Origin: Podarcis pityusensis | Taxonomy: Eukaryota | DNA length: 64,000 bases | Assembly: GCA_964106645.2 (NCBI GenBank) | Contig: OZ067047.1 | Direction: 5' to 3' (one strand) | Shown: positions 23,401-57,896 of the stretch, piece after piece | Layout: every line of letters starts with the position of its first letter | How positions within the stretch are numbered: position 1 is the stretch's first letter | The notes under the pieces: model-generated | Seen by the model: only the letters and a program-made list of their open reading frames with translations | The model's database searches: none | What the model was told of the DNA's origin: nothing | Translations under genes and position numbers: made by a program

Positions 23401-24159
23401 TCTGAACAAATTGTCATTCATCTTCCATCTAAAGGATCCGGTTGGTAGTAGTGTCATATCCATCTTAACTGCGTTATGGTCGGAGCAGGTCTTTGGGCAA
23501 ATTTCCACTTTTCTGGCCTTAGGTGCCAGGCCTCTAGATATCCATATTTGGTCGATTCTTGTCCAGGTCAGTTGGGCTTCAGAAAAGAATGTTCCCTCTC
23601 TTCCTAGTGGGTTCTTTGTCCTCCAGATGTCGATCAAGTCCATATTGTCTGTCATTTCAAAAAAAGTTTTAGGTAGTCTGCCGTCTTTTGTGACATTTTG
23701 ACTTTGTGACTTGTCCATGTTAGTTGATACGACCCCATTCATATCTCCCATCATTATGATGTTGTTGTAGTCCAGATAATCCAGCATAGTCTCATGCAAC
23801 TTCTTGTAGAATTCCGATTTCCCTTCGTTAGGTGCATAGATTCCTAATATCAACAATTTCTCTCCTTGGTGTTGTATCTCAATAGCCAAAATTCTTCCAT
23901 GTTCATCTTTAAATAAGAATTTAGGTGACAGGCTCTCTTTTGCATATATCACCACACCTCTCTTCTTGACTTTGTCCGAAGATATAAATTCCTGGCCCAA
24001 TCTTTTATTTATTAACACTTTTCTGTGGAGCCTTGTCACATGTGTTTCCTGTAGGCAAATAATGTCCAATTGTTCTTTTTTTAATATATGAAATATTTTC
24101 TTCCTTTTTTCCGGAATGTTACAGCCATTTATATTCCAGCTCAACAGTTGCAGAGACAT
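20418..24159 (-). pseudogene. L1 ORF2p (APE endonuclease + RT + CCHC), disrupted by one frameshift (~23290) and one in-frame stop (21921-21923)
   Basis: Motifs SWNING, LQETH, GDMN, SDH (EN); GTRQGCPISP, FADD (RT); CWKC-x8-H-x4-C. The three ORF pieces join to about 1246 aa. Confidence 0.93.
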
Positions 24160-24174
24160 CCTGAATTAATCTGG

Positions 24175-25212: not shown

Positions 25213-26502
25213 TCCAACGTTATCTATCAGTCAAGGTCACACTGAGTTATTCCCATGGGAATAGAAAGGCCCAGCGAAAGCAAACAGCCAGGGAATCGAA
25301 AGTAAATGTAAAGTCACTGTTTTAATCCAATCCTCTAGAGGGAGCCTAAAATGTCTTTCAGAGTCTAATTTAATGTCCAAGAACCTTCAAGTACAAGTAT
25401 TTAGCAGAGTTGATATTAATAATCACTTTGTTACAAACAGTGCTTTCTGGTCTCCAAGAAAATGTTTCAAGTTAGAAGGTCTAAATACCCTCAGATTGTT
25501 GCAAGTTCCAATATACAGTATCCAAATCTGCAGTACTGACAGCTCAGTCTCTCAAAGCTCAGGCAGCTCCGGACCCTGGGTTTCACCTTTTAATTGTAAT
25601 CCAATAAAAGAAGGAAAGTCAAATACAAATGGTGATTCCAAATCATTAACTTAAAGTCTTTACTTTAGATTACAGGTTCAGTGGATGCTTAGATCAGTAA
25701 GGTTAAAAGTTCTTTTTTCAGCCTCCACTCCTCCAGCTCTTTGCTTTTTCAAGTTCAGTGGCAGCGGAAGACGGACTTCCTGTTTCCACGTCTCTCCGCT
25801 CTCAGCCAAGTTCAAATCTTTTAGTTCAACTTTTAGTCTCTAATTTAAAGTGATTCAGTCTTTACTCACGAATAGGTTGGTTTTAATTCCGGATCCAAAT
25901 TTCACAGGAAAAGGGATCAGCGCTCACCGGCAGCAGCAGCGCGGCTTCGCTCCGCAGATTGCGAAACGGCTCACAGCGCCGCCACCCCCCTCCACGCTCC
26001 GGAGCCCCTTACGGGGTTCCTTTGATGTTTGGAGGGTCGCTTTTGGCGCCCACCGAGCCTCAAGGCCACAGGCTCTTGCCGCCTGTGGTTTTCCAGAGTG
26101 GGTCTCCGCTTCGCCGTAGCGGACGACCCGGTGTCTGCGGAGCCTCCTCTTCCCGGTTAGAAGAGGACCGCCATTGCCGTTCGCGCCGCCCCCGGAAGTC
26201 ACAACAAGAGTTTTGGATGCACAAACATTAGAGTACAGCAAGCCCTGTATCGTGCACTTGGAAAAACTAATCCGAGTTACACAATTTTCACACAGTAGTG
26301 TGCATCTTCCTCTATTAAGGAAAGTTCACAAGGATCTTGCACCCGGCTTGGAATATCAGTGGCTTTACATTCCACAACATGAATCAAAGAGTCAATGCAT
26401 GATTGCGCTTACACCAAGTGTACAACAACTCCCAGCTGCACAATGCACAAATCGGCTGGGAAGAAAGGACCATCCATAAACAAGACAGTGTGAGCTGATC
26501 TT

Positions 26503-37419: not shown

Positions 37420-37899
37420 CTATGAAAGAGAACAAAAAGAAATATATGTTCAGTCCTGTTTTTCCTGATACAACAGTATTTTTCTTGTGATTTATGCATA
37501 TTTATTTTCAGTGTGCATTCAAATACCAAAAATATTTTTTTTAAAAAAAACCACCTTCAAACATTAAAGCCAATGCTTTCTAGTATAATTGTGTAACATT
37601 AGTCTTTTAGTGGATGTAGACCACAATTTGGATATCGGACCCACTACAGAAGATCAAACTTGTATTTTAAAAAATGGTTCAAGTCATCTCTTAATAACGA
37701 AGCAGGAGTGCACCATTTTGAGGACTGAAGAGGAAGAAAACAATGTCAACAGCAAAATTCAGATGGAATCCTGTTACATTTGGGGCAATGCATCAGCTAC
37801 ACAATAAAGTTGTAGCTATGATGCTTTAAAAGCTTTAAATAATTAGCGAAAAACATTTGAAGAATAAAATGTGGAAGAAGAAATGTATTTTATACATAC

Positions 37900-37979
37900 C
37901 ACCTATGACCAGAAAGCACACTTTTCCAAGGAAAAAGTTGGCATCTACATGTAGCAGTGAAGATTCAATATCCTTAAAA
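37900..37979 (-). CDS. CENPM: CENPM coding exon 4 (FKDIESSLLHVDANFFLGKVCFLVIG)
   Basis: 80 nt. Acceptor tttttcaaccag|, donor |GTATGT. Contains the HVDxxFFLGKVCFL motif. Confidence 0.96.
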
Positions 37980-38182
37980 CTGGTTGAAAAACAAATAAAA
38001 AAGCACCCAGTGTGATAGTTGAAGCTGAAATATAGAAGTTGTGCAACACTAATCTGTGAGCTTCATGGCTATCAAGGCATCTCTGTCTTTGTTTGCCACA
38101 TCCATACCCAACACTCTAGCCACACTGACATTAACATTTTTAAAAGAAGAACTTCCTTCATACCCATCTTTCCTACACATAC

Positions 38183-38281
38183 CTGTATTTGCTTTTTACA
38201 TTAATCATAAAAACAATCAGATCAATTCGAGGCCGGATGTGATCTCTCTCTGCAGGTAAAGGAAGAGACCTTGTCAAGTGG
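38183..38281 (-). CDS. CENPM: CENPM coding exon 3 ([32 protein letters not shown])
   Basis: 99 nt. Acceptor ttctttcag|, donor |GTATGT. Contains the SLPLP...RPRIDLIVF motif of CENP-M. Confidence 0.96.
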
Positions 38282-38502
38282 CTGAAAGAAACCAAGGTGC
38301 ATTTTTAGTTAAGGCTACAAAACAGATAGATTTAACCTAAAGCTTTATAGGAAGGGGGAAACAGATATCACAAACACAGATTCATTCAACTAAACCACTT
38401 CAATCAGGAAGGTTGAAATCTTATAGAACATCTAACTGAACATAAGAGATCAAGCCAGTTGCAGTTTTAAATGGCTCTCTCTAAAGTCTGAATATGTTAA
38501 CT

Positions 38503-38633
38503 CAGGCTTCCTCAATCTCAGCCCTCCAGATGATTTTGGCCTACAACTCCCATGATCCCTAGCTAGCAGGACCAGTGGTCAGGGATGATGGGAATTGTAG
38601 TCTAAAAAAAATCTGGAGGGCCAAGGAAGCCTG
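38503..38633. mobile_element. Palindromic hAT-type MITE in CENPM intron 2 (related to 13459-13594)
   Basis: CAGGCTTCCT...AGGAAGCCTG. Perfect 8-bp TSD TGTTAACT. Confidence 0.88.
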
Positions 38634-39126
38634 TGTTAACTCTACAAGCTGCTGAACAATGCAACAGCACTATTACATTAGTGAAGGCTATACACTTTAG
38701 GCTCTCCAAACTGAAGAGAGTATCTACCACTGCCGAGTCCAGAGTGAACTGTGCCCCAGAAAACAGACACAGAAACATAGAATTGTAAAATTGGAAGGGA
38801 CCCTGAGGATCATCTAGTCCAACCACCTGCAATGCAGGAATGTGCAGCCATCCTATATGCGAATCGAACCTGTAGCCTTGCTACATGTATAAATAAAATC
38901 AAGAACTCAGTATTGCAAGGACCATTAATGGGTTGTAAGATTCTGCTTGTTTTAGAACATAACACTTTCTCCACCATCATAACAACCTTGCAGTAGAAAA
39001 CAGTTCACTACCGTAGAACAATGGTGTTCCATAGTAACCTCAAAACAGAAAGGAGAACAAAAAACTAGTATCTTTCAAATGGTAGTTTCCAGATTTGAGA
39101 GAAATTTAAGTTCTCTCACCACTTAC

Positions 39127-39206
39127 ATATTTATTTTAAAATCTTCTTTTTCCTTAAGCATTGTCTCTGCTAGCTGCTCTTGGAAATCTTCATTTGTTCC
39201 CACCAA
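39127..39206 (-). CDS. CENPM: CENPM coding exon 2 (LVGTNEDFQEQLAETMLKEKEDFKIN)
   Basis: 80 nt. Acceptor tttctttaatag|, donor |GTAAGT. Matches CENP-M LVGTEDALLQQLADSMLKED. Confidence 0.95.
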
Positions 39207-39340
39207 CTATTAAAGAAAAATAAAATTTGGCTAATAGCTGAGAAAAAAAGGAATTATGAATAAGAGATCAATTAACGAGTTACCTGCCCCAAAGTCCCCA
39301 TCTCCCTCCACACCTCATTTTTCAAGTCCAGCCCCTATGC

Positions 39341-39588
39341 CAGAGGTCAGCAACCTAAGGCCCATGGGCCGGAAGTAGCCCACGGAGGTCATTTGACTGG
39401 CCCATGAGCCGCCCCTGAACCGAGCTGCCTGCTTGCACGCTGTGCTAAACCGGCGCAGCACTGTGTGGGTACTTGCTTCCATGGCGCTGGAAATCCCGTC
39501 TGCGCAGATGCAGGAATTCGCAGGCGCACGCAGAGGAATCTCCGCGGGACCAATCCAGCCCAGGCAAGATAAACCTTGCCAACCCCTG
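39341..39588. mobile_element. hAT MITE in CENPM intron 1
   Basis: CAGAGGTCAGCAA...TTGCCAACCCCTG. Perfect 8-bp TSD CCCTATGC. Confidence 0.85.
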
Positions 39589-39692
39589 CCCTATGCCCAA
39601 CTCTCTGTTTGTCTTAAGCTGCCTTCCGGGATCTGACACCCTCAGGAAGTTTTGGGCTGCAGTTTTGCTGGCAAGGAATGATAGGAGTTGTA

Positions 39693-40015
39693 AGGTAAAG
39701 GACCCCTGGATGGTTAAGTCCAGTCAATGACGACTATGGGGCTGCGGTGCTCATCTCACTTTCAGGCCGAGGGAGACAGTGTTTGTTAACAGACAGCTTT
39801 CTGGGTCGTGTGGCTAGCATGACTAAACCGCTTCTGGAGCAACAGAACACCATGACGGAAACCAGAGGGCACGGAAATGCCGTTTACCTTTGCCCCACAA
39901 TGGTACCTATTTATCTGCTTGCACTGGCGTGCTTTCAAACTGCAAGGTTGGCAGGAGCTAGGACAGAGCAATGGGAGCTCACCCTGTCATGGGGATTTGA
40001 ACCGCCGACCTTCTG
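39693..40015 (-). mobile_element. Sauria SINE, 5'-truncated, in CENPM intron 1
   Basis: Similar to 33826-34150. TSD GGAGTTGTA at 39684-39692 and 40016-40024. Confidence 0.85.
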
Positions 40016-40380
40016 GGAGTTGTAGTGCAAAGCAGCTGAAGGGCACGAGGTTGGCGAAGGCTGGTCTTCAGTTACCCGAGTCAACAGTGGTTCAGCTTTA
40101 CCATTTCACTGGATGGGAGAACTTTAGCAGATGCGGCTCCCATCACCAAGCCTAAGGAACTCCATGTCTGACGTATTAAAATAAGGGGCTCAAATTTCAT
40201 CCATCCTTCCTTCTAGCTCAAGAGGGGAAAGAACTGATGGGGAAATGAGAGGGCAAATGAACTCTGTACATGGCCTGGGACTCGAACCCTCCACCCAAAG
40301 CAGCTCAGCAGCTAAGCCAACAGAAGCACTCTACCATTTAGTGACGGTAGAGAACCAAAGCATGGAAGTAAGCAAAATAG

Positions 40381-40833
40381 TCCGTATAGTTAAAGCTATG
40401 GCTTTCCCAGTAGTGATGTATGGAAGTGAGAGCTGGACCATAAAGAAGGCTGATCGCTGAAGAATTGATGCTTTTGAATTATGGTGCTGGAGGAGACTCT
40501 TGAGAGTCCCATGGACAGCAAGAAGATCAAACCTATCCATTCTCACGGAAACCATCCCTGAGTGCTCACTGGAAGGGCAGATCGTGAAGCTGAGGCTCCA
40601 ATATTTTGGCCACCTCATGAGAAGAGAAGACTCCCTGGAAAAGACCCTGATGTTGGGAAAGACAGACAGAAGGGGACGACAGAGGACGAGATGGTTGGAT
40701 AGTGTTCTCGAAGCTACCAGCATGAGTTTGACCAAACTGCGGGAGGCAGTGGAAGACAGGAGTGCCTGGCGTGCTGTGGTCCAGGGGGTCACGAAGGGTC
40801 GGACACGACTAAATGGCTAAACAACAACAACAA
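40381..40833 (+). mobile_element. RTE-BovB 3' fragment in CENPM intron 1
   Basis: Highly similar to 12875-13333, with a (CAA)n tail. TSD AAGCAAAATAG at 40370-40380 and 40834-40844. Confidence 0.95.
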
Positions 40834-40849
40834 AAGCAAAATAGAAAAC

Positions 40850-41460
40850 CAACGGGAAAGCAGCAAGGGAACCAATGAGAAGCCGGAAGGCGGGCTAAAA
40901 AAACCTTAAGGCGTCGTATTGCTTGGGAGCTCACTTTTCTAAGTCAGAACAACCAGGACCCCGGCCAAAAGCAAGCGGGGAAATAACGAAAAGAAACTGC
41001 CCGTTTGCGCTCCCGGTTGCCGCCCTCCCCCCCCCCGTCTCATAAATACGCACCAAAACAGTGGCAGAGTTGATTGCTGGGAGCTTGGCGAAGGCAGCCA
41101 ACGCCGCCATAATCACCAATTACAGCAACGCGACCTCAGGTTTCAAACTGCCGCCAGTACCTACGTCACCAAAGCGTCTTTATACGCGTCGCTGCTATAA
41201 AAGGAGGTCGGGGGTGTGGCCTCAATAGTAGATGCATTGCGGAGTCCGGTCTTCTCTGCGCATGCGGAGTTTTGGCTCTTCCCCTGCTGGAGGGAAGAGG
41301 GCGCACGCGCGGGCAGCAAGCGTTTTCTTTTCTGGTGTCTTATGTAGGGCACTTTGCGGGGGTGGCCGTTGGCACCTGCGCGCGCTGTGTGACGTCATTG
41401 CTCGTGAGAGGCTCGTGAGGGAGGGGGCGGGGTGTGAGGCTATAAAGAGAGAGTCTTGCC
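40850..41460. promoter_or_regulatory. CpG-rich bidirectional promoter (CENPM minus / SMIM45-direction plus)
   Basis: Dense non-TE CpG cluster. Motifs: CHR TTTGAA (minus, 41142-41147) preceded by TGGCGG; TATAAAG (minus, 41178-41184); TATAAAA (plus, 41196-41202); NRF1 TGCGCATGCG (41257-41266); CRE TGACGTCA (41390-41397); GC box about 41424-41432; second plus-strand TATAAAG at 41441. Confidence 0.85.
41054..41110 (-). CDS. CENPM: CENPM coding exon 1 (MAALAAFAKLPAINSATVL)
   Basis: ATG at 41110-41108 in a CpG-rich region. 19 codons resemble the N-terminus of human CENP-M as I recall it (MSVLRPLDKLPGLNTATIL). Donor TTG|GTGCGT, phase 0. Confidence 0.93.
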
Positions 41461-44400
41461 TTGGGGTGTTAGTGAAAGAGGCTTCCTAGCAGCGCTCATT
41501 CTAAATAAAATAATAAGCTGGAGGCAAATTTGTAGAAACGTAGCCTCTGGAACGACACTGTTTTTATTTTGTGTGGAGTGGTTCTGCAGCAGTGCTAGGT
41601 TTATTATAACCTTTCATGTAAACCTTATAGATGCCTAGGGAATGAACGCTATTGTTTGTTTTAATGATATATCTACCGGTATTTAATTTTTTTTGTCTTC
41701 TCAGGGGAGAAGTTCAGGGGTTTGTTTGCACCCATCTAGGAAAATTGATTTAATTGAGCAATTTCTTTCCTCTCCCTCTTCTGCTGCCTGGTAACTGGCT
41801 AAAAATAGAGATAAAGCACATGTTCCAAATTTCTTTGCTCAGACATTGTATTAAGCCAGTATTTTCCAACCTGCAGGTTGCAAAGCCTGTGCAAAAGGGT
41901 AGCAGGCTTTATAAGTAAACCCAAAGTAATTACTGCTTTCACTCCTTAACTGGTATGATGATCACTCTTAAAACTGTGTTGTTGGCGTATTGTGATGCTG
42001 TACTGACTCATGTAAGCAAACACTAAAGTGTAGGACTTGAGCATTTCCAACATTCACTAACATGTGTCAGGACAGCATTGAAATACAGCTGGGAACTGGT
42101 GGTTGGCTGCAGACGAAATGATGGTTTGCCACAACAGGCTCATACAGGGTGTTTTGAGTGACTAGTACGGCTCTTTCTGTGGAGGAGAGTGGCTTTTGTC
42201 TCTTTCAAGCATGTCTTGGTTGACAACTTCTGGGATCTGGGGAGTTCCCACAACACACACACACTTTGTGCATTTGGATATAGGGGGATCCCAGGGCCAC
42301 AGTGAGGGGTGCATAGGAGGAACTGCAAGGCAGGAAAGTGCGGAGATGCCCAGATTCCCAACCAGTTACTGGTTGGACAGAGAAAGGAAGAGTTTATATA
42401 AATAATAATATGGAAGATCATGGGTGATGAGCAGACAAGACCTTTATCCCATAAGTGGTGGCTTATGCCACTAATTCATATTGGAACCCCCACAACACCC
42501 ACATTCTTCAGATAGAGCTATCTAGGTCATTCACCACAATATATGAACCAAGGAAGAGCCTTGCTGAATCAGGCCAGTGGCTCATTTAGTCCAGCATCTT
42601 GTTCATATAGTTGCCAAGCAGATGACCGAATGGGAAGTCTGCAAGCAGGACCTGAGAGCAAGAGGTTTCTACATATATTTACTGTATGTTGAACAATTTA
42701 TATACCGCTTTTAATTAGACAAACCTCCTTAGCTATTTCCTTCTCCATACATTTGGACTTGTGGGTTGCCACACCAAAAAAGTTGGAAACTTCCGTTATT
42801 AAGCCACTTGTGTTGCTGAGATGTTGCCTGCTGAAATATGTGGCCGCACTGTGGTTGGACATGAACACTTAACAGTGGCCAATAAGCCCACCTACCATAG
42901 AAAAGATATCTAGGTCTCTGATTTAGGTTCTCATGTTCAAACCCTGACAGAATTATGCTAAATGACCTACAAAGAAGCAAAAATTAATAGTTTTAAGTTT
43001 AAGACTTGTGTGTATGTAACTCATGCCATCTCTCCAATAGTCCTGTTCGCTTATATTTAAAATTTAGAATCTGTTATATAGTATTGCTGTGTTCACAATG
43101 GCTTGCTTTTTGTAATCAGTTTTGAAAATGAAAAATGGAAAGATCAAACCTTTCTCCATATTTCCTATGTCTAAGGAGTTTTTTTTATTACTAATATTTA
43201 TGGAGCAGCAGAACTTTGTAAGCAGATGCTGATAGATAAATGAGCAACTAAACAGGAAAAATACTGACTTCAAGATCAATCAACCTTTTGTGGCTACAAG
43301 GACAAACCAATCTAATTTGTTTGCTGTTTCCTTTCATAGTACAACTCAATTTAGCAACATTTTATACTTGGATAACATGTTTCCAACTTGTTCTTGTGCT
43401 TGAGGACTTTTTTGTTGTTAATAATAGTCTATTTTACTGTGGAGGGAAGATGATGTAATGGTCTAATACAAAATATGAACAGCATCGTGGGCAGTAACTG
43501 GTTTTGACCACATCCTGTGTGCTTTTCTTTTTTGAAATACCATAAAGCACAGACCATGCAAAGGCTGTGTGTGTTAATGCAATCTGACATCATTTTTTAA
43601 AATCCTAACAAAGGTTGACAGTTCAGCACATTGCCAATGCTAGACAAATTGCAAGTGAAGTGGAAGAACTCTAGAAATATTTTTGTTCTTCATCAGATTC
43701 AGTTAGGGTTCATTGAGAATTATTCTGAAATAGGCTCATTGTAAAGGTATGAGAACAAAAAATAAATAGAACATTAAATCACCAGAAACTGCTGCTGGGA
43801 ATTTTAATTTTTAAAAAAGTGCAATGCTACATTTTGGAGATAAAAGAAATTGGGGGATGTCTTCTTTTATCTCCCATTTGTCACTTCTCTATTTATATAA
43901 AGCAGTTAGAGCTATTGCCTGAATTGATGCTATTGTGAAATCTAGGTCACAGCTTCTAACTAGTCTGAATGCATTTCCCAGTGCTACATATTGATCTTCT
44001 TCCACAATTTGATAATCATTTAAGGAATTTCAGGCAGACATCACAAGGCACTTTACAAAAGATCATTACAACAATAGCTTTGATTTTAAAAATGTTGCAA
44101 CAAAATGGAGAGGATACCCGCTTCTTTAGAAGAAGCTATAACTACTTCTCTCTTCAGGGCAAGATGTTCTGCAGAAACCCCTGTGGTGACAATTGGACTA
44201 GCAGTATGTTTGGTAACGTCCAGAAAAAAGCATCACTGGTATTAGTACCCTACAAGGTGGGATCTCTTATTGAGGCCCAAAGGCTGATAAGGGCTCACCA
44301 AACTGGAAAAAACCCTATCATCCCCATTTCACATGGGGCATCCAATAAGATTTCCCCCAGTTTCCCAACCCAGAGCTCATGCTCATACAACACTGCTACA

Positions 44401-47400
44401 TTACAACACTCCTGACTTTAGTAAGGGAGGAAAAGATAGAAATTCCCTGCATTCTCCAATCCCTTTTCTTGCCAGCATTCTCCATGCCCAACTACATCTT
44501 CACTGCTGATTTCCTGTCCTCCATACTCACTTCTCACTCTGTAATGTGGATCATGCCCATAATTTTCTGCCAGGATTATTGCCCTGATTTGTTTGCACTA
44601 GCTTCGGTTAAAAATATATACTTATACATAACTAGTTGTGTCAAAATATACACAAGGATGGTCAATAGAATGAATATCAGAATCCATCCCATTGAAAGCA
44701 ATGTAGCACCAGATGCAGATCTAATGTGCATTAGTTTATGGGGTGTGGTTCCTGTTCAAGTAAGTGATGCACATGCAGAAACCTGTTTACAGGTGTTTGG
44801 AAAAGCATGGAGTCAAAAGTGGCAACTTTAAGTGTTGCTGGGGTGGGCATAATATGTGTCTCTGTTGATGCTCACACATCACTATACTGTATTTGCAAAC
44901 ATTTATCCAATTTAAAACTGACTTCCTCAGCTTAGAGCATCTATCTCTCTCCCAATTCTGCTTGCTTATTCTCTGTACCACGTGCACTGGAGATCTTTCT
45001 AGGCTTGTTGCTATGACAACAGCTGATAGTCTGGCTGTGGTGTTTTGATTGGTTGGGGAAGGTCTTGCCTCTTTTGTGAGGGTGAAAGGGAGGGGGCCAC
45101 CAAAATGGGAGCAAGATGGAAAGAATCCAAAGCCGATCCATTTATGCGAGCAATGGGGGGGGGGGGAGAGCGGGGAAGCAGTCCTCGGCAGCTTCAGATG
45201 ATGAGGCAGTGAGCTTGACTGTGTGTCATTTACAATTGCATACGTGAGCATGCGTACATGCAGGGCAAGCAGCACTTCATTTCTGTCCATGCTATTGACT
45301 GCTCTGACACTTTGACGTGCTTGGACTGCATTCCATTGGAGAAGCACTTTGTCCCTTCCTCTGACCCATACAGCAGAGAGCAGCATCAGATGAGCAGAAT
45401 GCTACTGTTCTGTTCTGGGTAACAACAGATCACAGAGCAGTAGTCTGAATGAAGCATGTATGTGGATCGAGGTAGGTGATGCACCGTGCCCGGTATTGTA
45501 CATGCATGACTTCTTGTGTTGAGGGATCTCCTTTGAATTATGTCTATATGTAATACATCTTCGTTTATTTGGGCACTGTGAAGAAAAACAGAGCTATGGA
45601 AATTGAGGTATGGAAGGGAGCACATGGGTCATTTGTTCTGACCAAGCCCATAGAAGAAAATCCTTTCCTAAAGAAGAGAAGAAGCTAGACTTTTCTTTAA
45701 AACCTTCAGTGATGGAGAGGCATGACATGTTCTGTGATAGAGACTGGATGAGAGGAGGATATAGATGCGTACCATGGGACTTAAATGTATTTATTTTATC
45801 TAGAAAAAAGTATAGACCACTTAATCATAAAGCTCTATAAGTGGTGTAATTAAGAATAATATAAAAAACCCACCATGCATAAGTATGAGTCTGAATAGTG
45901 TTCTACAAGGCTGACCTAATGATGATTTTATATAAAGTCTACAACAACAATCTTAGGCTGTGCTGTCCTTATTCTTTTGCAGAAGTGCAGTGATTTTAGG
46001 CAGGTGAAGTTTTACTTTCAGTTCCTCATACCATTTTAACAACATTTAATTTCATAAACTAGCATAAAATAAACAGAATCTCAAAACAGACATATGCAGA
46101 CTCCAGATATCACATATGAAAAAAATGGGGAGATGCAAGAGACTGAATGGAGAAGATAAATAAGGTTTGTGGATTTTTAAAGGAATTTGAATAACCCTAT
46201 TTGGGGTCAATATAGTCCCAGTTCAACTGGGTATTGCTGATTTTTAATCTATGTGGCTGCAGTCTAATTGCACTAAGGAATAAGTCCCAATTATGTCTCT
46301 GAGACTTCTGAGCAAAAGTGATTAGGCTTGTGGCAGTAAAGGAGAAGGATAAAAAAGGTGGATAGGATCTTTGCCTATCAAAGTTAATGCAACATTTACG
46401 AGCATCTGAGGATTCACTGGATATTTATTTATTAAAATTACTCATCATATGACTGGCTATTATATTCCACTCTGGTATGAGGTGTCAATGGCACCTGTTT
46501 CTTCCCTTTGCTTGAATCTCTCTCAGTAGATGCACTTTAAGGATGTCTTTTAAGGATTGTGAGACTCACCATATGAAACCAAGGCCTATCCTTGCTAGTT
46601 TGGTTGAGTTGGCATGGGTTGGGTTAATTTCTAGTTGAGGCTGACATATTTTTGTCTGGAAACTGGTAGGGAAAAGAGCTCCTACATTTTTCTTTTTGAC
46701 CTGTTAAGAGTTGTTTGATGTGGTAGACCTTTGGATCCTACTAGATAGTTTCAGCAGCTATGGGAAAGCTGTGGGTTGGTTCTGTTCTTTACTTTTTGTG
46801 CCTAGCTGTAGAGTAAATTTAGGGGATATCTGTTCCACACCATGGAAACTGATCCGTGTTCCACCAGAACTGTTTAACATTTGTGAAACCACTGGGATTA
46901 GATTGTCCAACGACTACAAATGTGGCACCATTGTCATTAAGCTGAAGTTTCCCAGATCTATGTTGTTTAAGCATGCAAGAACAACTAACATTAGCAGCTG
47001 CATCTGGTACCCTGGCTTTGTCACTTCTCAATAATAGGAAGCCTGCCATTTGTCATTTATACGTTTGTGACCTCTGTCGTTTCATTTCTGTGTGCCCTTT
47101 TTGAAGACTCCTTCCTTGGACTATATTACTCATTTTTGCTGTAGTAAGAAGGGGTAGGGAAAACAAGTTCTAGTCATGTGGCATCTCTTCCCTTCTCACC
47201 TCTGCTCATTCAAGATGCATCAGCAAAAGTAACCCACAAGTTGCTTGCTGCCATCTGCTTTATGGAGTACACAGTTTTATATAACTTTATATATTTTTTA
47301 AATATCTGCCAGTGTTTTGCCTAATGGATTTGGCCTCTGTACAATTATGGCAATACGTTGTCAGAATATGTGAAACGGCACTTTTGTGCCTGGTTTAAAT

Positions 47401-47505
47401 TTAAAAATCTGCTGCCATGATCAGCTCTAAATGAAATTGGGGCATTACTTCTGAAGTCTAAATGAGAGATAGAAGTGTCCTCCCAAATGAGAATATGCTT
47501 GTAAC

Positions 47506-47684
47506 CAGAGGCGTAGGAAGGGGGGGTGCAGACCGCCCCGGGTGTCACCGCTGAGGGGGGTGACATTTGGCGCTTTGCTCACCTGCCACTCCCAAGCCTA
47601 CCCCAAGCTGTCAATGGTGGGGGCGGGGGCAGTTTGACAAAAAAAAAATTGCACCGGGTACCACCTGACCTTGCTACACCTCTG
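47506..47684. mobile_element. hAT MITE
   Basis: CAGAGGCGTAG...CTACACCTCTG. Perfect 8-bp TSD CTTGTAAC. Confidence 0.85.
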
Positions 47685-48161
47685 CTTGTAACTTCCTAGT
47701 TCTTATACCAAGGATCATTGCTCATGCTGCACCCCAAATTGCTGGGTGCTCTTTTTGCATACTGCATATTCATGTAATGATGAGCTGAAAGTTATCCTGT
47801 GAAGTTATCCAGAAAGATTTGCCCCTAAAAGTCATTGAAATGTCTTCACATGCATTGGCCGATACACCCTTGAGACCCCAGGGAGAGCTGTACTTTGAAG
47901 AGCAACTCCTAATAACTCTAGCAGCTTATATTAACCAAATCCTGAAGTTCCAAAATAGAGTCAAAATAGGGACAGTGGATTGCGGATACCAGAAAATAGG
48001 GACTATCTCTGGCAAAAAGGGACAGTTGGAATGTATGTGTAGCTCTGAAATGCTCCCATTGAGTTCTGTGGGACTAAATAAATGGACTGCAAGTATCTGA
48101 AATGTAGTTGAGAAGGTGCAACATTTCCTCCTTTCTGGGATCGTGTTCTATTTGCCTCTCC

Positions 48162-48417
48162 AGAAGAAGAAGAAGAGGAGTTTGGATTTGATATCCCGCC
48201 TTTCACTCCCTTTAAGGAGTCTCAAAGTGGCTAACATTCTCCTTTCCCTTCCTCCCCCACAACAAACACTCTGTGAGGTGAGTGGGGCTGAGAGACTTCA
48301 AATAAGTGTGACTAGCCCAAGGTCACCCAGCAGCTGCATGTGGAAGAACGGAGACGCAAACCCAGTTCCCCAGATTATGAGACTACTGCTCTTAACCACT
48401 ACACCACACTGGCTCTC
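48162..48417 (-). mobile_element. tRNA-derived CORE-type SINE (Squam3-like)
   Basis: Reverse-complement copy of the 33550-33800 element. Confidence 0.8.
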
Positions 48418-50407
48418 AGTCATGACCCTGAGCTCAAGCTTCGAATTCCTACCTTAATGGGAGCAGTGTTGCAGTACATCATCCCTGATGCAAAGTAGCT
48501 TAGCCTTCCACACCAAGGATCCCACAAGGAGAAGGACAGTAAAGCAGAATGCTTTTGATGCTTCTCCACATATCAGACATCATATCTGAGAAGGGGAGAC
48601 ACTGTAGAGCAGTGCCTCCCCACCCCTCTGCTGCAACTTCTGCTTGGGAGGGCAGAGAAGGATCCTTGGAGCATCTTCTGTTTTAGAGGTCAGGACCAGA
48701 TTTGGAAGTATAGGTCTGGTCTCATTCTTGACTCTCTGATGCTGCTGTGGTGGCTGGGGAGTGGCTGAATGGGGTTGAATAGGAAAGAGAGAGCAGTGGT
48801 GGAAAGTACTGAGATGCTCCTTCCTTCATCCATCAAATTTGAAGCATTGTTGGTTAGTTATTGTTTTGTCTAGCAGCATCATATTGGTTCACGGAGTAAC
48901 CAAAAAGCAGGGGAAGAGGATTCATACAGTTTGCATTTGGACAGTTAGAAAAACAAAAAAGGGAGGAACAGAAAGATGCAAGGACAACACAGAGACGGGG
49001 GAGAGGACAAGGAATGATTGTGAGGAAGTGCAGTTGTATATATTTTAAACATTTTGTTTCAGCTAGGGATAAAGACGGAGTGGTTAAGATAATAAAGAAC
49101 CAAATTATGTGAGATAAAATGGGAAGGAATCAGTGGATTCACAAAATATGTCATTGCTATAGTCAATATTAGAAGCAAAGAACGATTGAATAATGAATAA
49201 AGGCCACTTGCAGACAGAGGATTTTTGAGTGCCATACAGGACTGTGTGTCTTCTCATGCAGATCACTGCAAGTCCACATGACAGGCTGGGATCTAACAGG
49301 GCCAGCAGTGGCTGCAAGGTTGAAAATAATGACTGTAGCAACTATCCCACCCTACTTGGTACATCTTCTGTACTTCAGGTTCAGCAGTTTAGTGCTAACT
49401 TGTCAGTGGTGGCAGAAGCTGCCAACTGGATGCAGCCTGAGTGGAAAAAGGAAAGAAGCTGAAAAAAGCAGGAAATGGAGCTCATCTATATTGAATGGCT
49501 AGCTGGTCTAAGAAGTGGAAAAGTAGTGGAATATAGAGTTGAGGAAAATGTGTTATCAGTTGAGGTATGGCTGGGATAAAAGGGGGAGTGAAGTCAGCAG
49601 TCTGGGACCAGTTAGTACCATTTGAAGGTGCCTTTGCCATCCAATCAACAACATAAGACTTGTTATCTAGCATCCCTGCTGTGTGCAAAATGATGTGTGG
49701 GAACATGTGGCAAGGCTTTGTTGTAGGGGCTAGTTTTAGCTCTCAGTAGGGATCAGCTTCAGGTTATTGGTAGCTGCTGCATTGAGCAAACAAGACTGAG
49801 TTCTGGATGAGGCAGATCAGGATCAAAGGGGCCAGAGTTTCCAGAGGAAGTCAGGGTTAGGTTGTAGGTTGAGTGGCAAAGGCACCTGGACTATGCACTG
49901 CTACTCATGGCAACACATAGATGAGAGTTAAGGAGCAAGGAGAAAGCAGGAGTTGGCCTGTGGGATCAGCTGACAACTCAGGTAGGCCAGTACTTCAACC
50001 TTGAGGTAAAGCCCAATCTGCCAGGTTTACAGAGGAGACAGAACACAATGGAGCAGAAGGCTAGGTTCTAGATCCTGACACTAAATTCCTAAAGATACCA
50101 ACTTGACTACTTCATAGCTTGACAAGCACCAAATATTTTACTTTGTAAACAGACATTTGGACTGGAGTACTGTAATAGAAGTTTTATTAATTGATTGCAC
50201 CCTTGTTGTTGTCGCCACCTATATGTTGTTTTATACTATATTGTTTGCGTTTTTATTATTAGGTTATCATTGTTTCTATCTGGATGTTAGCTGCCTTGGA
50301 TAAAATATTTTAATTTAAAAAATCCAAATACTGCCAAAAGATAAAGGAAATATGTGCATATTGGCTTGCTTTATTATGATTTGTTATTCCTCAATTTTCT
50401 CTCTCAG

Positions 50408-50475
50408 GGGTATAGCAACTTTACAAAGCACTTCTTAACAAGCAATCTGAGAGAGGAAAAAATCAGTTGCTCAAG
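50408..50475 (+). other. Probable non-coding 5' UTR exon of SMIM45
   Basis: Acceptor aattttctctctcag| and consensus donor AAG|GTAAGC. 68 nt long, 644 nt upstream of the coding-exon acceptor. Confidence 0.55.
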
Positions 50476-51124
50476 GTAAGCTATTGTGTGGATTTAGTAG
50501 ACTTGCATTATTCTTTGGAATCATAGTATAATTATACTGCATTAAAAGAGACAATATATTAAGTGAGGCATGGATTAAAGGAGAAAGTGGGGTATCAAAA
50601 GTTGCAATCAGCCTAGTGGGATAGTTGGGGCTAGAGAGCACATTAGGAATTTTGAGACAGTAAGTACAATGGGTACCAGTCACATAAGAGCTGCTGTGGG
50701 ACCATAGCATAATACAAAATGGCTGCCACATCCAAAAGAGAGAGAGAAAAGACAGGATCATAAAATTGTGTGGGCATGTTCCTTACCACCCTCCCATCCA
50801 TGGAAGAAAGGCACCTTACATCAGCCACTGCTGCACTTGCTCACAGAGCGCACCTCTCCAATGTGGGCATGTCTAAGGGTTCATGTTCACTGTAAGAAAG
50901 GCTGAACCAATGCAAACAGGAACTGAACAAGGAGGGCAAACCTTCTCATGTATTGTGGATTTTTGAGGAAATATTTACTGAGACCTGTGGGTTCATAGGA
51001 AATACGCTGGCACTCATGGCTACTGCGCTAGTGTCTATATAAATATATATATGTTTGACAGTGATTTTGATACTCATCAACCAATACCAACTGCATATGT
51101 TTACCTTTTCTTTTTCTAGCAATC

Positions 51125-51331
51125 ATGCCTCATTTCTTGGATTGGTTTGTGCCAATGTATCTGATGATCTCCATTCTTATCTTGGTGGGCTTTGGAGCTT
51201 GCATATACTACTTTGAGCCAGGACTTCAGGAAGCGCACAAGTGGCGGACACAAAGGCCAATCATGGAACGAGACCTTCGGAAAACACTGATGATACGAGA
51301 CAACCTTGCATTTGGGGTGCCTGAAGTCTAG
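51125..51331 (+). CDS. SMIM45: Small integral membrane protein 45, 68-aa single-TM microprotein
   Basis: MPHFLDWFVPMYLMISILILVGFGACIYYFEPGLQEAHKWRTQRPIMERDLRKTLMIRDNLAFGVPEV has the same length as, and is near-identical to, human SMIM45 as I recall it. Hydrophobic segment about aa 7-30. Strong acceptor ttttctttttctag| at 51119, 5 nt before the ATG. Syntenic with CENPM. Confidence 0.93.
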   Translation: MPHFLDWFVPMYLMISILILVGFGACIYYFEPGLQEAHKWRTQRPIMERDLRKTLMIRDNLAFGVPEV

Positions 51332-53334
51332 TATTCTTCTTGCATAGATGTGTTGGAAGTATCTAGAAGAAAGCCATCCCCACCTGAAGTTACAAATTAC
51401 TGTGCACACTCTGGTTTGCTTAGCACTTCTGCAAGTGATGTGGTCAAACCACTCCTTGCTTGGGTCTCTGATAATGAAGTGTTCCTTTTTGCTATTTAGA
51501 CAAGGCCTGTAGACTCATATCAACTTAGACCCTCTGGTTTTTGAATTTGTTCATCACTCCATCACTTGATATTTTTTATCCTCCATATATAAAGAGCTCT
51601 TTTTACCTTGCTAGGAGTGGTCACACCTGTACGTGAGCTTTAGACCTCTTAAGTATAAGAAAGCAATATTTCTGCATGACCTGTGTATTTTGGTCGAGTG
51701 CCTCCTGGACAAGTGCCCATCTCACAAACCTCACAACAGACACCATTTCATTACTTTATTTAGAGTCTCTTGGGTGAGGCAAAACCCCCAAATTGATTGC
51801 TCAGACTGAATTCTATTCTCATTCCCAACACTGAGCTCAGATATGCAGTAGGACACATTACTAGCCAAGTTGTATATATTTTGATTTCAGATCATTTCAC
51901 TGCACACAAGCGCCTGTCTGGCTCTGAAGTCACTCACTCAAATTTCACTTTTAAAAGTCTGTGCAGATTAATTACCGTTAAAGAATTGCTTTTATTTCTC
52001 CATGATTGGGGAATTTGTTTCTAGATGTTGGATTGCCTGCACTTCTCTATACTTAGAGGATCCAGACTGCTGTCATGCGAAAAGCTTGTATTTCACAATC
52101 CTCTGCTGCTGCAATCTTTTAAAGTGGTCTGATCAGGAGTCCCCTGTTTAGCACTGTTCTTTCTAGATTGTCAGCCAGACTGAAAACTGTGAAACACCAT
52201 CACACAACCTACCTTTCTGCATCCACACCAAAAGCCATGGAGCCAGAGGCAGTCACACTGCAGTTCTAATTTCTATACGTTGCTTCTGGAGCTCCGTTGT
52301 GTGGGGTTATGCAGTAGATATGCTCTCTATCCACACAGTGTTTGCACTTTGATCCACATTTCCTTTAGGGATATGTTACCAAAGTGCTGTATAAAAACAT
52401 TAATGCATGTGAAAATGGGCAGGAACCTCTGCTAATCCAACAGTGTGCAGATTTCATACTGATAATATTGGCAGAATATAGGACCTATGACATGATGGGT
52501 ATTCTCATAGCTGGTTTTACTGTACCTATATTATCTCTCACCTTTGTTTCAGGGCATCAGTTCTGACTGTAGAGTATGTTTCATTCCCTTGTTGGCAGAG
52601 TATGTCATGCTGTGTTAACACATCTGTTCCACTGTGAAGTACTAGTCTTGTGGACATCAGTTTCACCAGTATACATTTCATGTTAGGGACAGGTGCCTTT
52701 GCTTCTCTACCGTACTCATGTGTGTACATTCCATGTTAAGGTAGCACATACTGTTAATATCTACTTCATCCCCCAGTTACAGAGACATGTCTATACGTTG
52801 GATGCCTCATTGGAATGCATTCACTCCCACACCATAGTTTCGTAGAACATAGTTCTTCTCTACATTCCATACTTTCCTCGCCTGTCAAGTGCTGCCTTCT
52901 CATACACTTGGATACATTCTGTTGTTTCCGTGATCTCATTCAGTGCCATAGTCCCTGACAACTGCACAGTACAGCAGGAACTTGGAATCTTGCTGGAAAG
53001 ATGCTCACTCCTTCATTGGATTTCCTCCCCAGTCTGCTCACAATGAAACCACACAGCCAGCCGGAGATCGCTATCACTTGAAAATGTGTGGCATGCTTTG
53101 TCAGCAGCTGCTGAATTTGAGCATAGCCCATTGCATAAGGTGGTATGTGATTTATTGTGTGTGGCTGCCTGAGGACACTTCTAGTGTGAGGGTAGTTTCT
53201 AGCACAAGGTGGGGGTAAGTGTTTTGGTACAGCTGTGTGGAGCTATCTCAAAGCAGGTGTAAAAATCACACTAGGTCTCATTATATGCATCACAAATGTC
53301 CACAGAACTTGTGTTGCTTCAAATATACAGAACA

Positions 53335-53408
53335 GGGTGAGATTCCTGCATTGCAAGGGGTTGGACTAGAGGACCCTTGGGGTCCCTTCCAACTCTATGA
53401 TTCTGTGA
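53335..53408 (+). mobile_element. CR1-type 3' end fragment
   Basis: GGGTCCCTTCCAACTCTATGATTCT 3' motif. Related pieces at about 10870-10900 and 38775-38840. Confidence 0.6.
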
Positions 53409-54627
53409 AGATGAGACACCATTTCCCAGGTGCCCAAAACAGCAGAGCAGCTTTCTGGTGTGGGGTCATGTGTGTTTAGAGCATGGATCTTGGCTAAGTA
53501 TATGCTATTTTAAGCATTCTAATGTATTGAATTGGCTGCCCCTCTCCAGGGACCATTGCACACAGCAACAAGCTGCATCTGGGCCAGTCTTTCCATTAGG
53601 CAGAGTGAGTTGGTTGCCTGAGAAAGCAACTTTTGGATGCGCCCTACCAGGGTGGCAAATTGCTTGTTTGTATTGTGTCTGTATGTGTTGAGTTTGTAAG
53701 GCACCCAAATGTCTTGGTCAGCTGTGAGCAGCATGCTCCAGTGTGCAAAGATCAGATGGCACAGACAGAGCTAACCATCCATTTAGCAAGTGGTGATGCG
53801 CATTATCCTGATCCAACACGTAACATGCATATGTGCAAGGGCTGCAGAATATTTTTCACCCTGCACAGTCAACCCCTCCTTGGAGTCCTCCGTGGACCAA
53901 TACAGAAAGGGACCTGCACACACAAACCTACTTCTGTGTGCACAGATTGCCTTTGCTGGATTGGAGCAATTATATTTTTGTTTGAGGGCATGAGACTAGG
54001 TAAAGGCAGCACCATAACATTCCCAAGTTGTTCTGCTCTAAATGGGCACTTTCCTGTATCCATGACCCATTTGTTACTATATCTACTATAGCCATAGTCT
54101 CTGAGTTTCACTTGGAGACCTGTTTTCTGAGCCTTGATTTCATTTGTGAAGACTAGGCTACCAATGCAAATGAATGGACCCCAGGCTGAGCAATGGGGGT
54201 AGCAATAAGTATCCTATCTGGGGCCAGGAGTTTTAAAGACTTTGTGGACAGGCTGCATTATCCATTGACGGCTAATACATGGGGGGTGGGGGGTTCTGTG
54301 GGACTCATCATGACACACTTTTTTGAACTTAGCCACATAATCTTTGTCCTTCCCAAGTTTCTTTTCTCAGGGTTGCCTCACATGATAAAGAGAAAACGAG
54401 ATGATTCTTCCGTGAATCAGCCACATGACGCTGCCTGCTGCAAATATGCTTTTCATATTATGTCAGGTATCTCTCAGTGTAAGATAATCTCCGTTAGGAA
54501 GTGACTCAGTGACCACACAAGCTTTTTGTACGTATATTGATTTCAGTTGAACTGCAGAATGCGAGTGCAAATAGTCGTTGAGTAATACCCTTGATATTGA
54601 GAAGTGCTGAAAGGAAACAATTTTTTC

Positions 54628-54767
54628 TCTTTTCTGTTCAAAATTAAAATTATTGGGCACATGAACCTGGGTATATAATTTATATCCTTGCCCTCTAGAA
54701 GTGGTTGGGAGTGAGACCAGCTACCCAGGTTCATGTGTCCAGTAATTTTAATTTTGAACAGAAAAGA
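54628..54767 (+). repeat. 46-bp inverted repeat with 48-nt loop
   Basis: Arms 54628-54673 and 54722-54767 are reverse complements except at two positions. Confidence 0.92.
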
Positions 54768-57127
54768 TAAAAATTAACTCTAGCCACGGAGACTGAACAA
54801 TCATCTTATGGTGTACCCAGCCCAAACTGATTCACATTGAGTGCTGTTGAGTGAGAGCTCAGTGGAAGTTTCTCACACTTTTCTATTCCTATCCTTGAGG
54901 ACAATTGAAGAACTGCATTTGCTACCAGCATGAAATCCACAGTATGTTTTCTGTTTCATGAACATAAAACATTTCCGGAAAACCAGCTATATAAACAAAA
55001 ACAAGTCTCTGAGTTTTGTGCCAAAATCTGGGAGTTAGGATAAATGGTTAGAATTATCCCACCTAACTTAGACGGAAGGGGCATCAGCCTAAATTTGTGC
55101 TTGACTTTGATTAAATAGTAACCACATAAATTGTGTTCTTCAGTGACAACCAATAATTATTTTAAAAAGGGGGAAATCAGAATTAGAAGAACCAATGGCC
55201 TGTCTACATTCTGTGTGAAGCCCTGGCCTCTTCTCTTGCTTTGTACTGTTTTGTGTGCCAAGTCTTCAATGGTCTTATCTATCCAATTCTGTATCTTACT
55301 CCATAGGGCTAACTACCTGCAAATGAACAAGAAGTAAAAATATTTTTGTTTGTAATGTCTCTTTTGATTATGGAGCAATCTCATAAGAGAACTGTGGTGT
55401 TTTGGGGATTTGTTGAGAGTTTGTCACTTTTTGTGCTGTTCCTAAACCTACCAGTTTGCCTGTGAAATCTTCAGAATGTAATTGTTATGATAATCTCATG
55501 TGTGAATGTTCTGTTTCAGTGGTGGATTTTTATGCCCATGTGATCTTTTCTTGGATCATGTGCTTTACATGATTGGGCTTTTGTGAGACAGTATGTATTT
55601 TCCATTATTGGAACCAACATTTCAGCAGGGTTTGAATCTGATTAATTAGAATTAAATATCAAATTTCAATCTGCTCAGAATTTAGAAATGTTAAACTGTT
55701 ATTTCTATTTGTAATTCTTTGAGGTGAGAAAGCTAAACTAAAGAAAGTTAAAAAGTTACTCAGTGCTCTGGAACATTCAGTTTACCTAGTTTTGAAGTTC
55801 AAAGTTGTGAAAGTCAAAGACTAATCCTAAACAGACTCATTAAGAAGTCTCATTAAAAACAGTAGGAACTAATTTTCTGAGCAAACATGCATAGAATTTC
55901 TTTGACATTTGGAGCAATTTCAAATGTGTTATGAATTTAACTTAACTGGACATTTGTTTATTTTTATATTTCAGATTTGTTCTGGTTCTTACTATTGTAT
56001 TAACTTGTAACATTTGGAAATAGAACAGCTTAATGGTTCAGAAATCAAAACACACATGAAAATTGCGTTTGAAAAACAACATGGAGTTTGGAAACTTGAG
56101 TCATAAATTGTTGTGCCTTGGATTATCATGGCTATTTTGGACATCTCTCCTAATCCAGAGCCACCAATTAGTGCGCAGAAGGTGGTTTCCTCTCTGTGGA
56201 AGTAGGTAAACCTGCAAGTTGCGCATGGAACCTGGAAAGCTATGGGGAGCACCCAGCTGTCATGTCACCTGCCACAACTAGATGGATACTGAGAGAGACT
56301 TCTTAGGAGCTCCTCACAATAAAGACTTGTTTGGGGGAATGTATGAGGAGTGTTCAGTCTGAATCTGGGATTCCTTTTGCACAGCAACTGTCCCCCCTGA
56401 GAACTAATAGAAGCTAGAAGAGGCATGTAACTCTCCAGACATGATTGCTCTGTGAAGATCAATGAAGCTACATGTCTATGCCCATTCATTCTCTGCATTG
56501 GGGCTGTTAGGTTTTGTTGTCAGCATATGTGGGTAAATTTATTGTGTATATTGTAAAGCACAAAGCAGACGCTCCAGCAGGTTTAGGAAATTTAAAACTG
56601 CAGTAATGCCTCTGAGGTATATACTGAAGTTAATAAGAGGTCCTACTACACTGACCCTGATACAGAGAACTGCAAGCGAATTAGAAGGCTGCAGAGCCAA
56701 CTATGTTGCTTGCAATGCTTATATGGTGACTGGAGTTCCTCACTGTGCAATTTTTTTTCACAGCTCCAGTTCTGCTCCCTGATGAATCAGGAGCAGGGAA
56801 AAGGAGGAATGACCAGACTGAAGTTAAGGGAAAATACTTAATATGGGCAGGGGATGACTAAGCTGTGACCTTGTTTTCCACTACAAATACCTATTTCTCC
56901 CGAACCGCAAAATTTTCTTCCATTGACAGATAGTTCCATCCTGCGAATTTAACTCATTTGCCTCAGAGCTAAGGGAAAACAAAAAGTAACCTCATCCCTG
57001 TCTGATGTTGTGCAAAGTATGTTCTCAGCTTGATTTTTGCACTGTTTGGTCATAGATGCTCCTGATGAAATGCGATTTCATGTTAATTGTTATATAGTGC
57101 TGTATTATGAAAAAAAATTGAAATTCT

Positions 57128-57133
57128 AATAAA
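57128..57133 (+). terminator. Candidate SMIM45 polyadenylation signal
   Basis: First canonical AATAAA I saw downstream of the SMIM45 stop. It follows AU/GU-rich UTR-like sequence and has a TG/T-rich region downstream. ATTAAA variants occur earlier. Confidence 0.45.
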
Positions 57134-57896
57134 CTATGTGGAGTCAATCAAGAGCATGGTGCTTTGTTGACATTGATGCGTGTATGTTAATGTTTTTAAC
57201 AAGCAGTCTACACAACTGCAGTGAGGCTTAGGTTCTTGTTTTGTTTTGTTTTGTTTTGTTTTGTTTGATACACAGAACAAGTGATACAAATTGGCTCAAA
57301 CCAGTTTGCTACTAGCACAATTGTGTCATCAGTTGCTTACCACAAGCCGCACCTTCTGGAGCACATAGCAGCCAGGGTGATATTCTTCAAGAAACTGCCA
57401 CAGGCCCAGGTCTGATCAGGAGTAAATCCCACATTGGATCCTGTGACGGCTTTGTTTTTCTTTCTTCAAAATACAAGTGGTTATTGTAACATGGTTTGGC
57501 CCTGTGCAGATTTTTCTCTCACAACTGGCCTATTGTTTTGCAAGTGATTAGTTCACCAGTGTGTGCAGCTTTTTGAAGAAATGGAAGTGCTATATAAAAC
57601 AAAATGGTGACATGACCATATCTGTACACATTAATACATTTTTAGATTACTTGAAAGGACAATGGGTTGCTTATTTCTGATTGACTGTAATTCTCATCTT
57701 CAGTATCCTTCAAACCCACTTGTGACATGAAAATACACATTTCCAGATATATTTTTAAATGACCAGAAGGAAATGAAATTACTAATATCTTGTCTCAGTT
57801 CCCAAATGGTGAATTCTGGATACTCTGTGCTTGTTCTGCTCAGGGCCGCCCCAAGGCTCATTTTGCTGACTGAGGCAAAGGACAAGATGGCATTCC

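Follow-up and report, generated by a model that had tools for sequence, protein, structure and literature searches.

What allows a membrane protein of only 68 residues to change so little from sharks to mammals, and what does such a protein do? The question is raised by a short open reading frame (ORF) in the window analysed here, a 64,000-nucleotide stretch of lizard DNA, in which a first-pass annotation had recognized SMIM45 (human LINC00634, ENSG00000205704, UniProt A0A590UK83; PMC11011693). The annotation held that the protein has no clear function, and our literature search, in which subscription journals were mostly not covered, likewise showed no functional data on the 68-residue protein among the papers listed. 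The gene and its conservation to sharks are already published, SMIM45 being called an ancient vertebrate gene in a review that covers Leushkin and Kaessmann (2024) (PMC12684174), and in this respect the lizard gene, whose protein is public, adds little. The locus nevertheless offers a handle on an orphan, brain-expressed, ultra-conserved microprotein, and it is central to a dispute over de novo genes. Here, we report that the ORF is a spliced, single-copy, syntenic orthologue of SMIM45 under strong purifying selection (Table 1), and we consider what its membrane helix and its tail may be for.

The reading frame consists of an ATG, 68 codons and a TAG, and encodes the charged tail that had been quoted for it. 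In a search of 5.8 billion proteins, all 53 of the 53 candidates were homologues at E ≤ 3e-10; the ORF is not a chance one. These homologues are vertebrate wherever they are named and are labelled SMIM45, LINC634 or hypothetical; the best of them are SMIM45 proteins of 68 residues matched over the full length, which settles the assigned identity. Identity to the window protein is 97–99% in birds and alligator, 84–87% in most mammals (87% in mouse), 66–90% in cartilaginous fishes and 54–73% in teleosts, in the last case over the N-terminal part only. The protein is of sauropsid type, with one or two differences from those of stork, pigeon and gecko, and exactly the same protein is present in NCBI and UniRef (a cluster of 64 members). 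Near-identity and common length had been claimed for amniotes; the conservation extends far beyond amniotes, to sharks. Only one of four candidates in the lizard's own genome was significant; the three others (E 2.9–7) were rejected as paralogues.

Table 1. Features of the SMIM45 locus, in window coordinates.
Feature	Position	Strand	Basis or remark
First exons of CENPM (start codon at 41110), in head-to-head orientation to SMIM45	37838..41110	-	Pfam PF11111, raw-read introns
CpG island at CENPM start	40751-41500		
Non-coding exon 1, donor GTAGGT; 5' end is contig start only	45196..45471	+	X1, X11 joints
Out-of-frame uORF, 58 codons on spliced RNA, overlapping first 92 nt of CDS	45460..51216	+	weak start context
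Non-coding exon 2, 68 nt, CAG acceptor, donor GTAAGC	50408..50475	+	X1, X11 joints; X10, X12 ends
Polypyrimidine tract and TAG acceptor of coding exon	51095..51119	+	
SMIM45 coding sequence, 68 aa plus TAG	51125..51331	+	ORF read, homologue search
Predicted transmembrane helix, residues ~9-30 including Cys26	51149..51214	+	hydropathy, models
Juxtamembrane residues 31-40, near-invariant in vertebrates	51215..51244	+	
D50..L55-M56, extended acidic dileucine-like element, non-canonical spacing	51272..51292	+	motif count
D59-N60-x-A62-F63, NxxF motif, candidate PTB/FERM (SNX17-type) ligand	51299..51313	+	motif count
C-terminal Pro-Glu-Val, candidate C-terminal-valine export signal	51320..51328	+	not canonical PDZ ligand
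Probable long 3' UTR	51332..56993	+	seven X1 contigs with small gaps, taken as one transcript

A strong splice acceptor had been predicted directly in front of the ORF. Its AG, which lies behind a tract of 82% pyrimidine and a 59-nt AG-free zone, has its last base at 51119 and so leaves 5 nt to the ATG. Transcript contigs show the acceptor in use. Those of runs X1 (study P1) and X11 (P5) join exon 1, exon 2 and the sequence from 51120 onward at GT..AG introns, and contigs of X10 and X12 (P4) start at the acceptor, their loose ends corresponding to the 3' end of exon 2; contigs of X16 and X20 are unspliced across the locus. Thus, in the contigs of three studies the ORF lies in the last exon of a spliced transcript. 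The first-pass description of a single-exon ORF is right for the coding part; the gene as a whole comprises three exons or more in this animal. Transcript evidence comes from 8 of 24 listed runs; the contig runs are from close relatives and none is recorded as RNA, although the splicing of their contigs shows that they derive from RNA. Two raw-read runs cover the ORF at a depth of 0.06–0.43, with no SMIM45 joint among the joints listed. The leader of 349 nt carries ten upstream ATGs, all in exon 1. In mouse, the transcription of SMIM45 reportedly falls and its translation rises after nerve injury, in a study that scored the mRNA in ribosome profiling of sensory ganglia (PMC6428075); translational control may therefore operate.

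The ten upstream ATGs, one of which opens an overlapping frame, together with the very low raw-read depth, would suit an ORF that is untranslated or a by-product, at a locus that acts as RNA or DNA (a lncRNA or a silencer). We consider the probability of this to be negligible. The upstream ATGs are not significantly enriched over shuffled leaders (p 0.09), the frame and its length are kept to sharks, and the human annotation rests on Ribo-seq (PMC11011693). Compared with the human coding sequence printed in the same source (44.7 synonymous and 159.3 non-synonymous sites), 21 of the 68 codons are identical, 38 differ synonymously and nine change the amino acid, as counted by eye; synonymous sites are near saturation, the non-synonymous fraction is ~0.06 and the nine changes are of a conservative type. 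Contig X1 differs from the window at 27 places over 51118–52601, every one of them outside the coding part (P 0.017). Four further organisms have no listed coding difference and six substitution and three indel sites in the UTR, the few counted differences beyond those listed being not all placeable. The codon counts and the X1 differences show purifying selection on the protein, as the claim of strong constraint had anticipated.

The position between CENPM and SEPTIN3, which the first-pass annotation had given for human SMIM45, is confirmed here by CENPM exons upstream on the minus strand and SEPTIN3 exons downstream on the plus strand. Two CENPM exons match PF11111 at 36.7 and 48 bits (cut-off 25), and minus-strand introns are seen there in the raw reads of run X21; the SEPTIN3 exons, ~24 kb past the SMIM45 stop, match PF00735 and have neuronal-specific septin-3 as their best PDB match. 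This order and orientation is the human arrangement (PMC11011693). A swallow SMIM45 (P0008) is annotated as 'neuronal-specific septin-3 isoform X7', which hints at shared SMIM45–SEPTIN3 transcripts in birds, and both genes are up-regulated in the hen shell gland (log2FC 3.73 and 4.44, respectively; PMC13508552).

The wider surroundings show several further features. Four teleost models from distant orders (P0149–P0152) consist of SERHL fused to a complete C-terminal SMIM45; these are most likely merged models of adjacent genes, and would place teleost SMIM45 directly behind serhl. In the window, a second CpG island (25751–26500, o/e up to 0.97) lies upstream of the 3' part of CENPM. A near-full-length LINE at 20421–25230 (minus strand), presumably of L1/Tx1 type from its translations, has an ORF1 and an ORF2, the latter broken into three frames. 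In the LINE fragment at 10901–13320 (plus strand), endonuclease and reverse transcriptase are spread over frames of 173, 402 and 233 codons that we take to be RTE/BovB-like, and short related copies lie near 40334–40816. Together with the sauropsid-type protein, these RTE/BovB-like frames fit a squamate.

The region behind the stop codon bears on the second, 107-residue ORF of the human transcript. The first-pass annotation noted an ORF gap after the stop; we find no plus-strand ATG ORF of at least 60 aa until 53285, the nearer ones being of 54, 33, 49, 35, 30, 36, 47 and 44 aa. Over 51332–52151, ATG frames span 33–54 aa only, and the human-type second ORF, which in human begins 324 nt past the 68-aa stop (PMC11011693), is absent. 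Published marker motifs of the 107-aa region are absent from the six frames of 51332–57200, and the 11-base proto-silencer occurs only with two mismatches, at chance level. Delihas roots the 107-aa region in Afrotheria (placental mammals) and reports the silencer segment to be without similarity even in elephant shrew. Because the region is rooted in placental mammals, and the lizard 3' region is low in GC (40%) and lacks the motifs, a reptile gives no ancestral state for the 107-aa ORF; the suggestion that the lizard could serve as an outgroup is weakened, the animal being too distant.

In the lizard, the coding exon probably continues into a long 3' UTR. Seven X1 contigs tile 51118–56993, intronic bins are without depth, and AATAAA occurs at 56318 and 57128, so that a 3' UTR of ~5.7 kb is likely; a repeat lies at ~53300–53900 within it. 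What is 3' UTR and what is protein matters for the literature as well. The knock-out of An et al. (PMC9911349) deleted 40 bp of the 107-aa frame; since this is 3' UTR for the 68-aa protein, the organoid phenotype is no test of that protein. The phenotype is often credited to SMIM45, for example in PMC12455275; in PMC12606820 and PMC12534706 the subject is the 107-aa protein.

How old is the 68-residue protein? A profile of 20 rows searched against 1.84 billion representatives gave 64 matches, 63 of them at E ≤ 1.3e-17 and one at 4.3e-4. The last is a 208-residue Branchiostoma protein (LOC118419514 / XP_035681820). Related proteins occur in B. lanceolatum and B. belcheri, giving three amphioxus species with proteins of 201–209 aa. 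The 208-residue protein aligns with SMIM45 residues 1–34 ungapped from Met1 at 16 of 34 identical positions, and 13 columns are invariant over the 46 rows that include amphioxus. On a vertebrate-only profile, amphioxus residues 1–45 score 34.5 bits; the shuffle maxima are 15.8 (5000 plain) and 16.7 (5000 pattern-keeping), with 0 of 5000 in each set reaching 34.5. The reciprocal amphioxus profile finds five non-teleosts at E 2e-4 to 4e-3 and two teleosts only at 1–2. A vertebrate-core profile gives the full-length amphioxus proteins E values of 0.03–0.05 for the library size, weaker than 4.3e-4. From these results the amphioxus protein is quite probably homologous to SMIM45, and likely an orthologue; a tree of 22 rows, which has no root and supports only the amphioxus/vertebrate split well, is uninformative on orthology.

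The amphioxus tail is of a different kind. In a post hoc comparison, teleost tails match, over their final nine residues, an amphioxus segment ~20 residues past the conserved Trp (shuffle p 0.001, 0.0006 and 0.07). The tails of P0104, P0132, P0147 and P0148 contain two or three [TV]QT motifs, which we take to be of LC8 (dynein light chain) type (three are reached in 0.13% of shuffles), as well as a Tyr-Asp-Asn-x-Ala-Met motif, and end in a class I PDZ pattern (2.9% by chance); all three features are kept in the three species.

The matches that carry names include no lamprey and, amphioxus apart, no tunicate or other invertebrate; most representatives are nameless, and 50% clusters can hide members. 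A homologue search among proteins of 365–2000 aa gave no invertebrate; sizes of 120–364 aa were covered by the SMIM45 profile search and the amphioxus-relative search only. Both Delihas papers (PMC11011693, PMC13205175) stop at the elephant shark, and their main texts do not mention amphioxus, lancelet or Branchiostoma, while their supplements may list more species. Among the papers listed for SMIM45 with amphioxus terms none contained SMIM45, which is a weak test, and we found no published description of the relative. If the relationship is true, the membrane module dates to the chordate ancestor and is older than the published elephant-shark limit, which would partly answer the question left open by Delihas of an origin before elephant shark.

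The module itself is simple. The single transmembrane helix of the first-pass annotation is borne out by a single hydrophobic stretch (best Kyte–Doolittle 19-mer 2.33 at residues 9–27) and by one confident helix predicted by AlphaFold2. In two runs, with alignments of 20 and 46 rows (pTM 0.39), residues 2–30 are modelled as a confident helix (block pLDDT 77–96) and the tail with low confidence, residues 47–61 forming a low-confidence helix that includes Asn60. We measured conservation in 44 distinct proteins with the standard tail length, taken from 148 fetched: the mean column conservation is 0.96 for residues 1–40, 0.79 for 41–57 and 0.89 for 58–68. Residues E31, P32, L34 and W40 are also present in amphioxus. 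The eight helix positions that are invariant in 46 rows do not lie on one face (resultant 0.34). Lizard, cod and amphioxus have no Lys or Arg before the helix, where the net charge is −1, and two or three among the 15 residues that follow it; in amphioxus, N-glycosylation sequons lie to either side of the helix. An N-out/C-in topology is likely; the charge bias is a weak sign of it, and the LC8-type motifs and PDZ end of the amphioxus tail, both cytosolic signals, are a further hint.

Conservation on all faces fits a helix surrounded by protein. One way to achieve this is self-assembly into a homo-oligomeric pore or a phospholamban-like reservoir, with no obligate partner, and the small residues S16, G22, G24, A25 and C26, kept throughout the vertebrates, could pack such an oligomer. 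Amphioxus, however, has Ile and Phe in place of the two Gly residues and Leu in place of the Cys, so that a Gly-based self-interface would not be ancestral; moreover, S16 and C26 apart, there is no polar face to line a pore. We therefore find self-assembly very unlikely. A homodimer prediction for residues 1–45, made with neither alignment nor controls, scored 0.03 and gave no verdict.

Searches for known families and folds returned little. No Pfam family was found for the lizard, mouse or amphioxus protein (one teleost match lay far below the cut-off), a PDB sequence-profile search gave a single chance match (E 0.66), Foldseek against the PDB gave 0 matches, and VIA-align gave long helices only (Z ≤ 5.1, rmsd 5–11); the fold searches are uninformative because the query is one helix. 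The best two matches in the ESM Atlas are unnamed chordate clusters. Nlp36 (0.85) and adipogenin (0.79) for the lizard protein, and C1orf185, TMIE and stannin (≤ 0.88) for the amphioxus protein, are leads that scored under the tool's mark, and we did not adopt them.

Two candidate sorting signals stand out in the variable tail. The first is the NxxF motif: [DE]Nx[AG][FY] occurs in all 44 shark-to-mammal sequences, which are kin and not independent, and [DE]Nx[AG]F in 51 of 58 HKWR-bearing sequences, models with other tails included. In gerbil and pocket gopher, position 61 is Pro, which turns the motif into NPxF. The residue two before Asn60 is Arg, and classic PTB/FERM ligands have a hydrophobic residue there. 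SNX17 is known to bind NPxY/NxxY and, weakly, its own NxxF (PMC11772769). The second is an extended dileucine-like element, [DE]xxxxL[LIM], in 38 of the 44 tails of the 68-aa type. The canonical acidic dileucine [DE]xxxL[LI], the AP-1/2/3 consensus (PMC5297682), occurs in none of these 44, lizard included, and in one of four amphioxus proteins. Of shuffled lizard tails, 3% contain NxxF/Y and 8% the extended dileucine by chance.

Teleost tails cannot be aligned with the 68-aa-type tail (lizard tail versus teleost tail profile, p 0.21). They end in [DE][DE]xxxL[LI] in 26 of 26 normal-length sequences, which again are kin, models with other ends (e.g. P0049, P0050, P0094, P0098–P0100, P0102 and P0103) being left out. 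In unnamed records a Trp extension runs past the teleost Leu-Ile end, presumably through a mis-called TGA stop.

The extreme C-terminus had been proposed as a PDZ-type ligand. Expanded into a function, this would make SMIM45 a PDZ-anchored microprotein whose tail serves mainly to tie its final three residues to a PDZ scaffold. The terminal residue is indeed hydrophobic almost throughout, being Val in 40 and Leu in one of the 44 sequences, while all 29 teleost ends counted carry Ile or Leu, and the class I end of amphioxus is unchanged in three species. The PDZ patterns of classes I, II and III, in the form that we take to be standard, are nevertheless fitted by 0, 1 and 0 of the 44; Pro occupies position −2 in 42 of them, lizard included, three end in Ala (two) or Thr (one), and conservation is lower over the last three residues than at N60, at F63 and in the helix. 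The proposal of a PDZ ligand thus does not hold in its usual sense, and PDZ anchoring as the main function of the tail is improbable. A bare C-terminal valine is, however, an ER-export signal and is accepted by the PDZ domains of GRASP55/65 (PMC11470877). From the pattern of residues, an atypical C-terminal-valine signal is the one candidate that remains for the lizard tail end. We found no published description of the tail motifs as sorting signals.

These observations can be combined in one reading, in which SMIM45 would span the membrane once, N-out/C-in, as an accessory subunit whose tail directs trafficking; we see the balance of probability for it as even. The N-terminal hydrophobic stretch would insert as a reverse signal anchor, and residues 4–40, which are conserved on all helix faces from shark to teleost and partly in amphioxus, would be buried against a conserved membrane partner. 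The variable tail would then set the destination of the SMIM45–partner pair, the C-terminal valine serving ER exit and the NxxF motif, alone or together with the dileucine-like element, serving endocytosis or endosomal recycling. In teleosts a canonical acidic dileucine would fill the same role; in amphioxus it would fall to a longer tail that has a class I PDZ ligand at its end.

The membrane part of this reading would equally suit a subunit that resides in a complex of the ER, the Golgi or mitochondria, either with tail motifs that are incidental or with a lumenal tail: any buried subunit would be conserved on all faces, the charge bias is weak, and a review of mitochondrial microproteins (PMC12455275) includes SMIM45, by name only. 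It is the tails that speak against residence, since tails that cannot be aligned between the three lineages contain, in each of them, a motif of the post-Golgi sorting type; the protein also lacks a basic N-terminal presequence. We regard a resident subunit as unlikely.

The accessory-subunit reading has a broader form, which we advance only tentatively: comparison of the sequences suggests a chordate-old family, not one that arose in jawed vertebrates, in which a module of 34–40 residues that amphioxus also has may bind one conserved membrane partner and the cytosolic tail may be a swappable endosomal sorting module. Under it, the tail is of the NxxF and C-terminal-valine type from sharks to mammals, of the acidic-dileucine type in teleosts and of the long LC8/PDZ type in amphioxus. 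If this is true, a trafficking signal fixes the C-terminal codons, which the literature holds to be fixed partly for an 'exonic silencer'. In either form, the tail motifs define exact point mutants for cell-biology testing.

The lizard shares with human and mouse SMIM45 (mouse 1500009C09Rik, NP_001382884) the length of 68 aa, with 59 of 68 residues identical to each, the neighbours and orientation relative to CENPM and SEPTIN3, and a coding sequence that lies wholly in the last exon behind the acceptor. The human leader also has upstream ATGs (four in the printed mRNA, by eye). In contrast, three exons are seen in the lizard and two are reported for human; the 3' region is probably ~5.7 kb and 40% GC in the lizard but ~1 kb and GC-rich in human; and no 107-aa-type ORF was seen in the lizard. 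Within the protein, the lizard has Met at position 11, where 36 of 44 sequences have Val. The amphioxus proteins (LOC118419514, P0104, P0147 and P0148) resemble SMIM45 over residues 1–34, and their acidic Leu-Ile element ~20 residues past the conserved Trp resembles the teleost tail end. They differ in their long low-complexity tail with LC8-type motifs and a class I PDZ end, and in the residues at the Gly and Cys positions of the helix.

With the cargo signals of the SNX17/PTB and AP-1/2/3 systems, the likeness is one of sequence match only, and the dileucine spacing of the lizard is non-canonical. The closest parallel to the proposed role is MAP17/PDZK1IP1, an accessory subunit of SGLT2 whose helix binds the transporter and raises its surface expression and activity (PMC12605011). 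The two proteins have no sequence, Pfam or fold match, and SMIM45 lacks a canonical PDZ end; the likeness is architectural, and MAP17 thus serves as a small membrane protein that carries out the role which SMIM45 may play.
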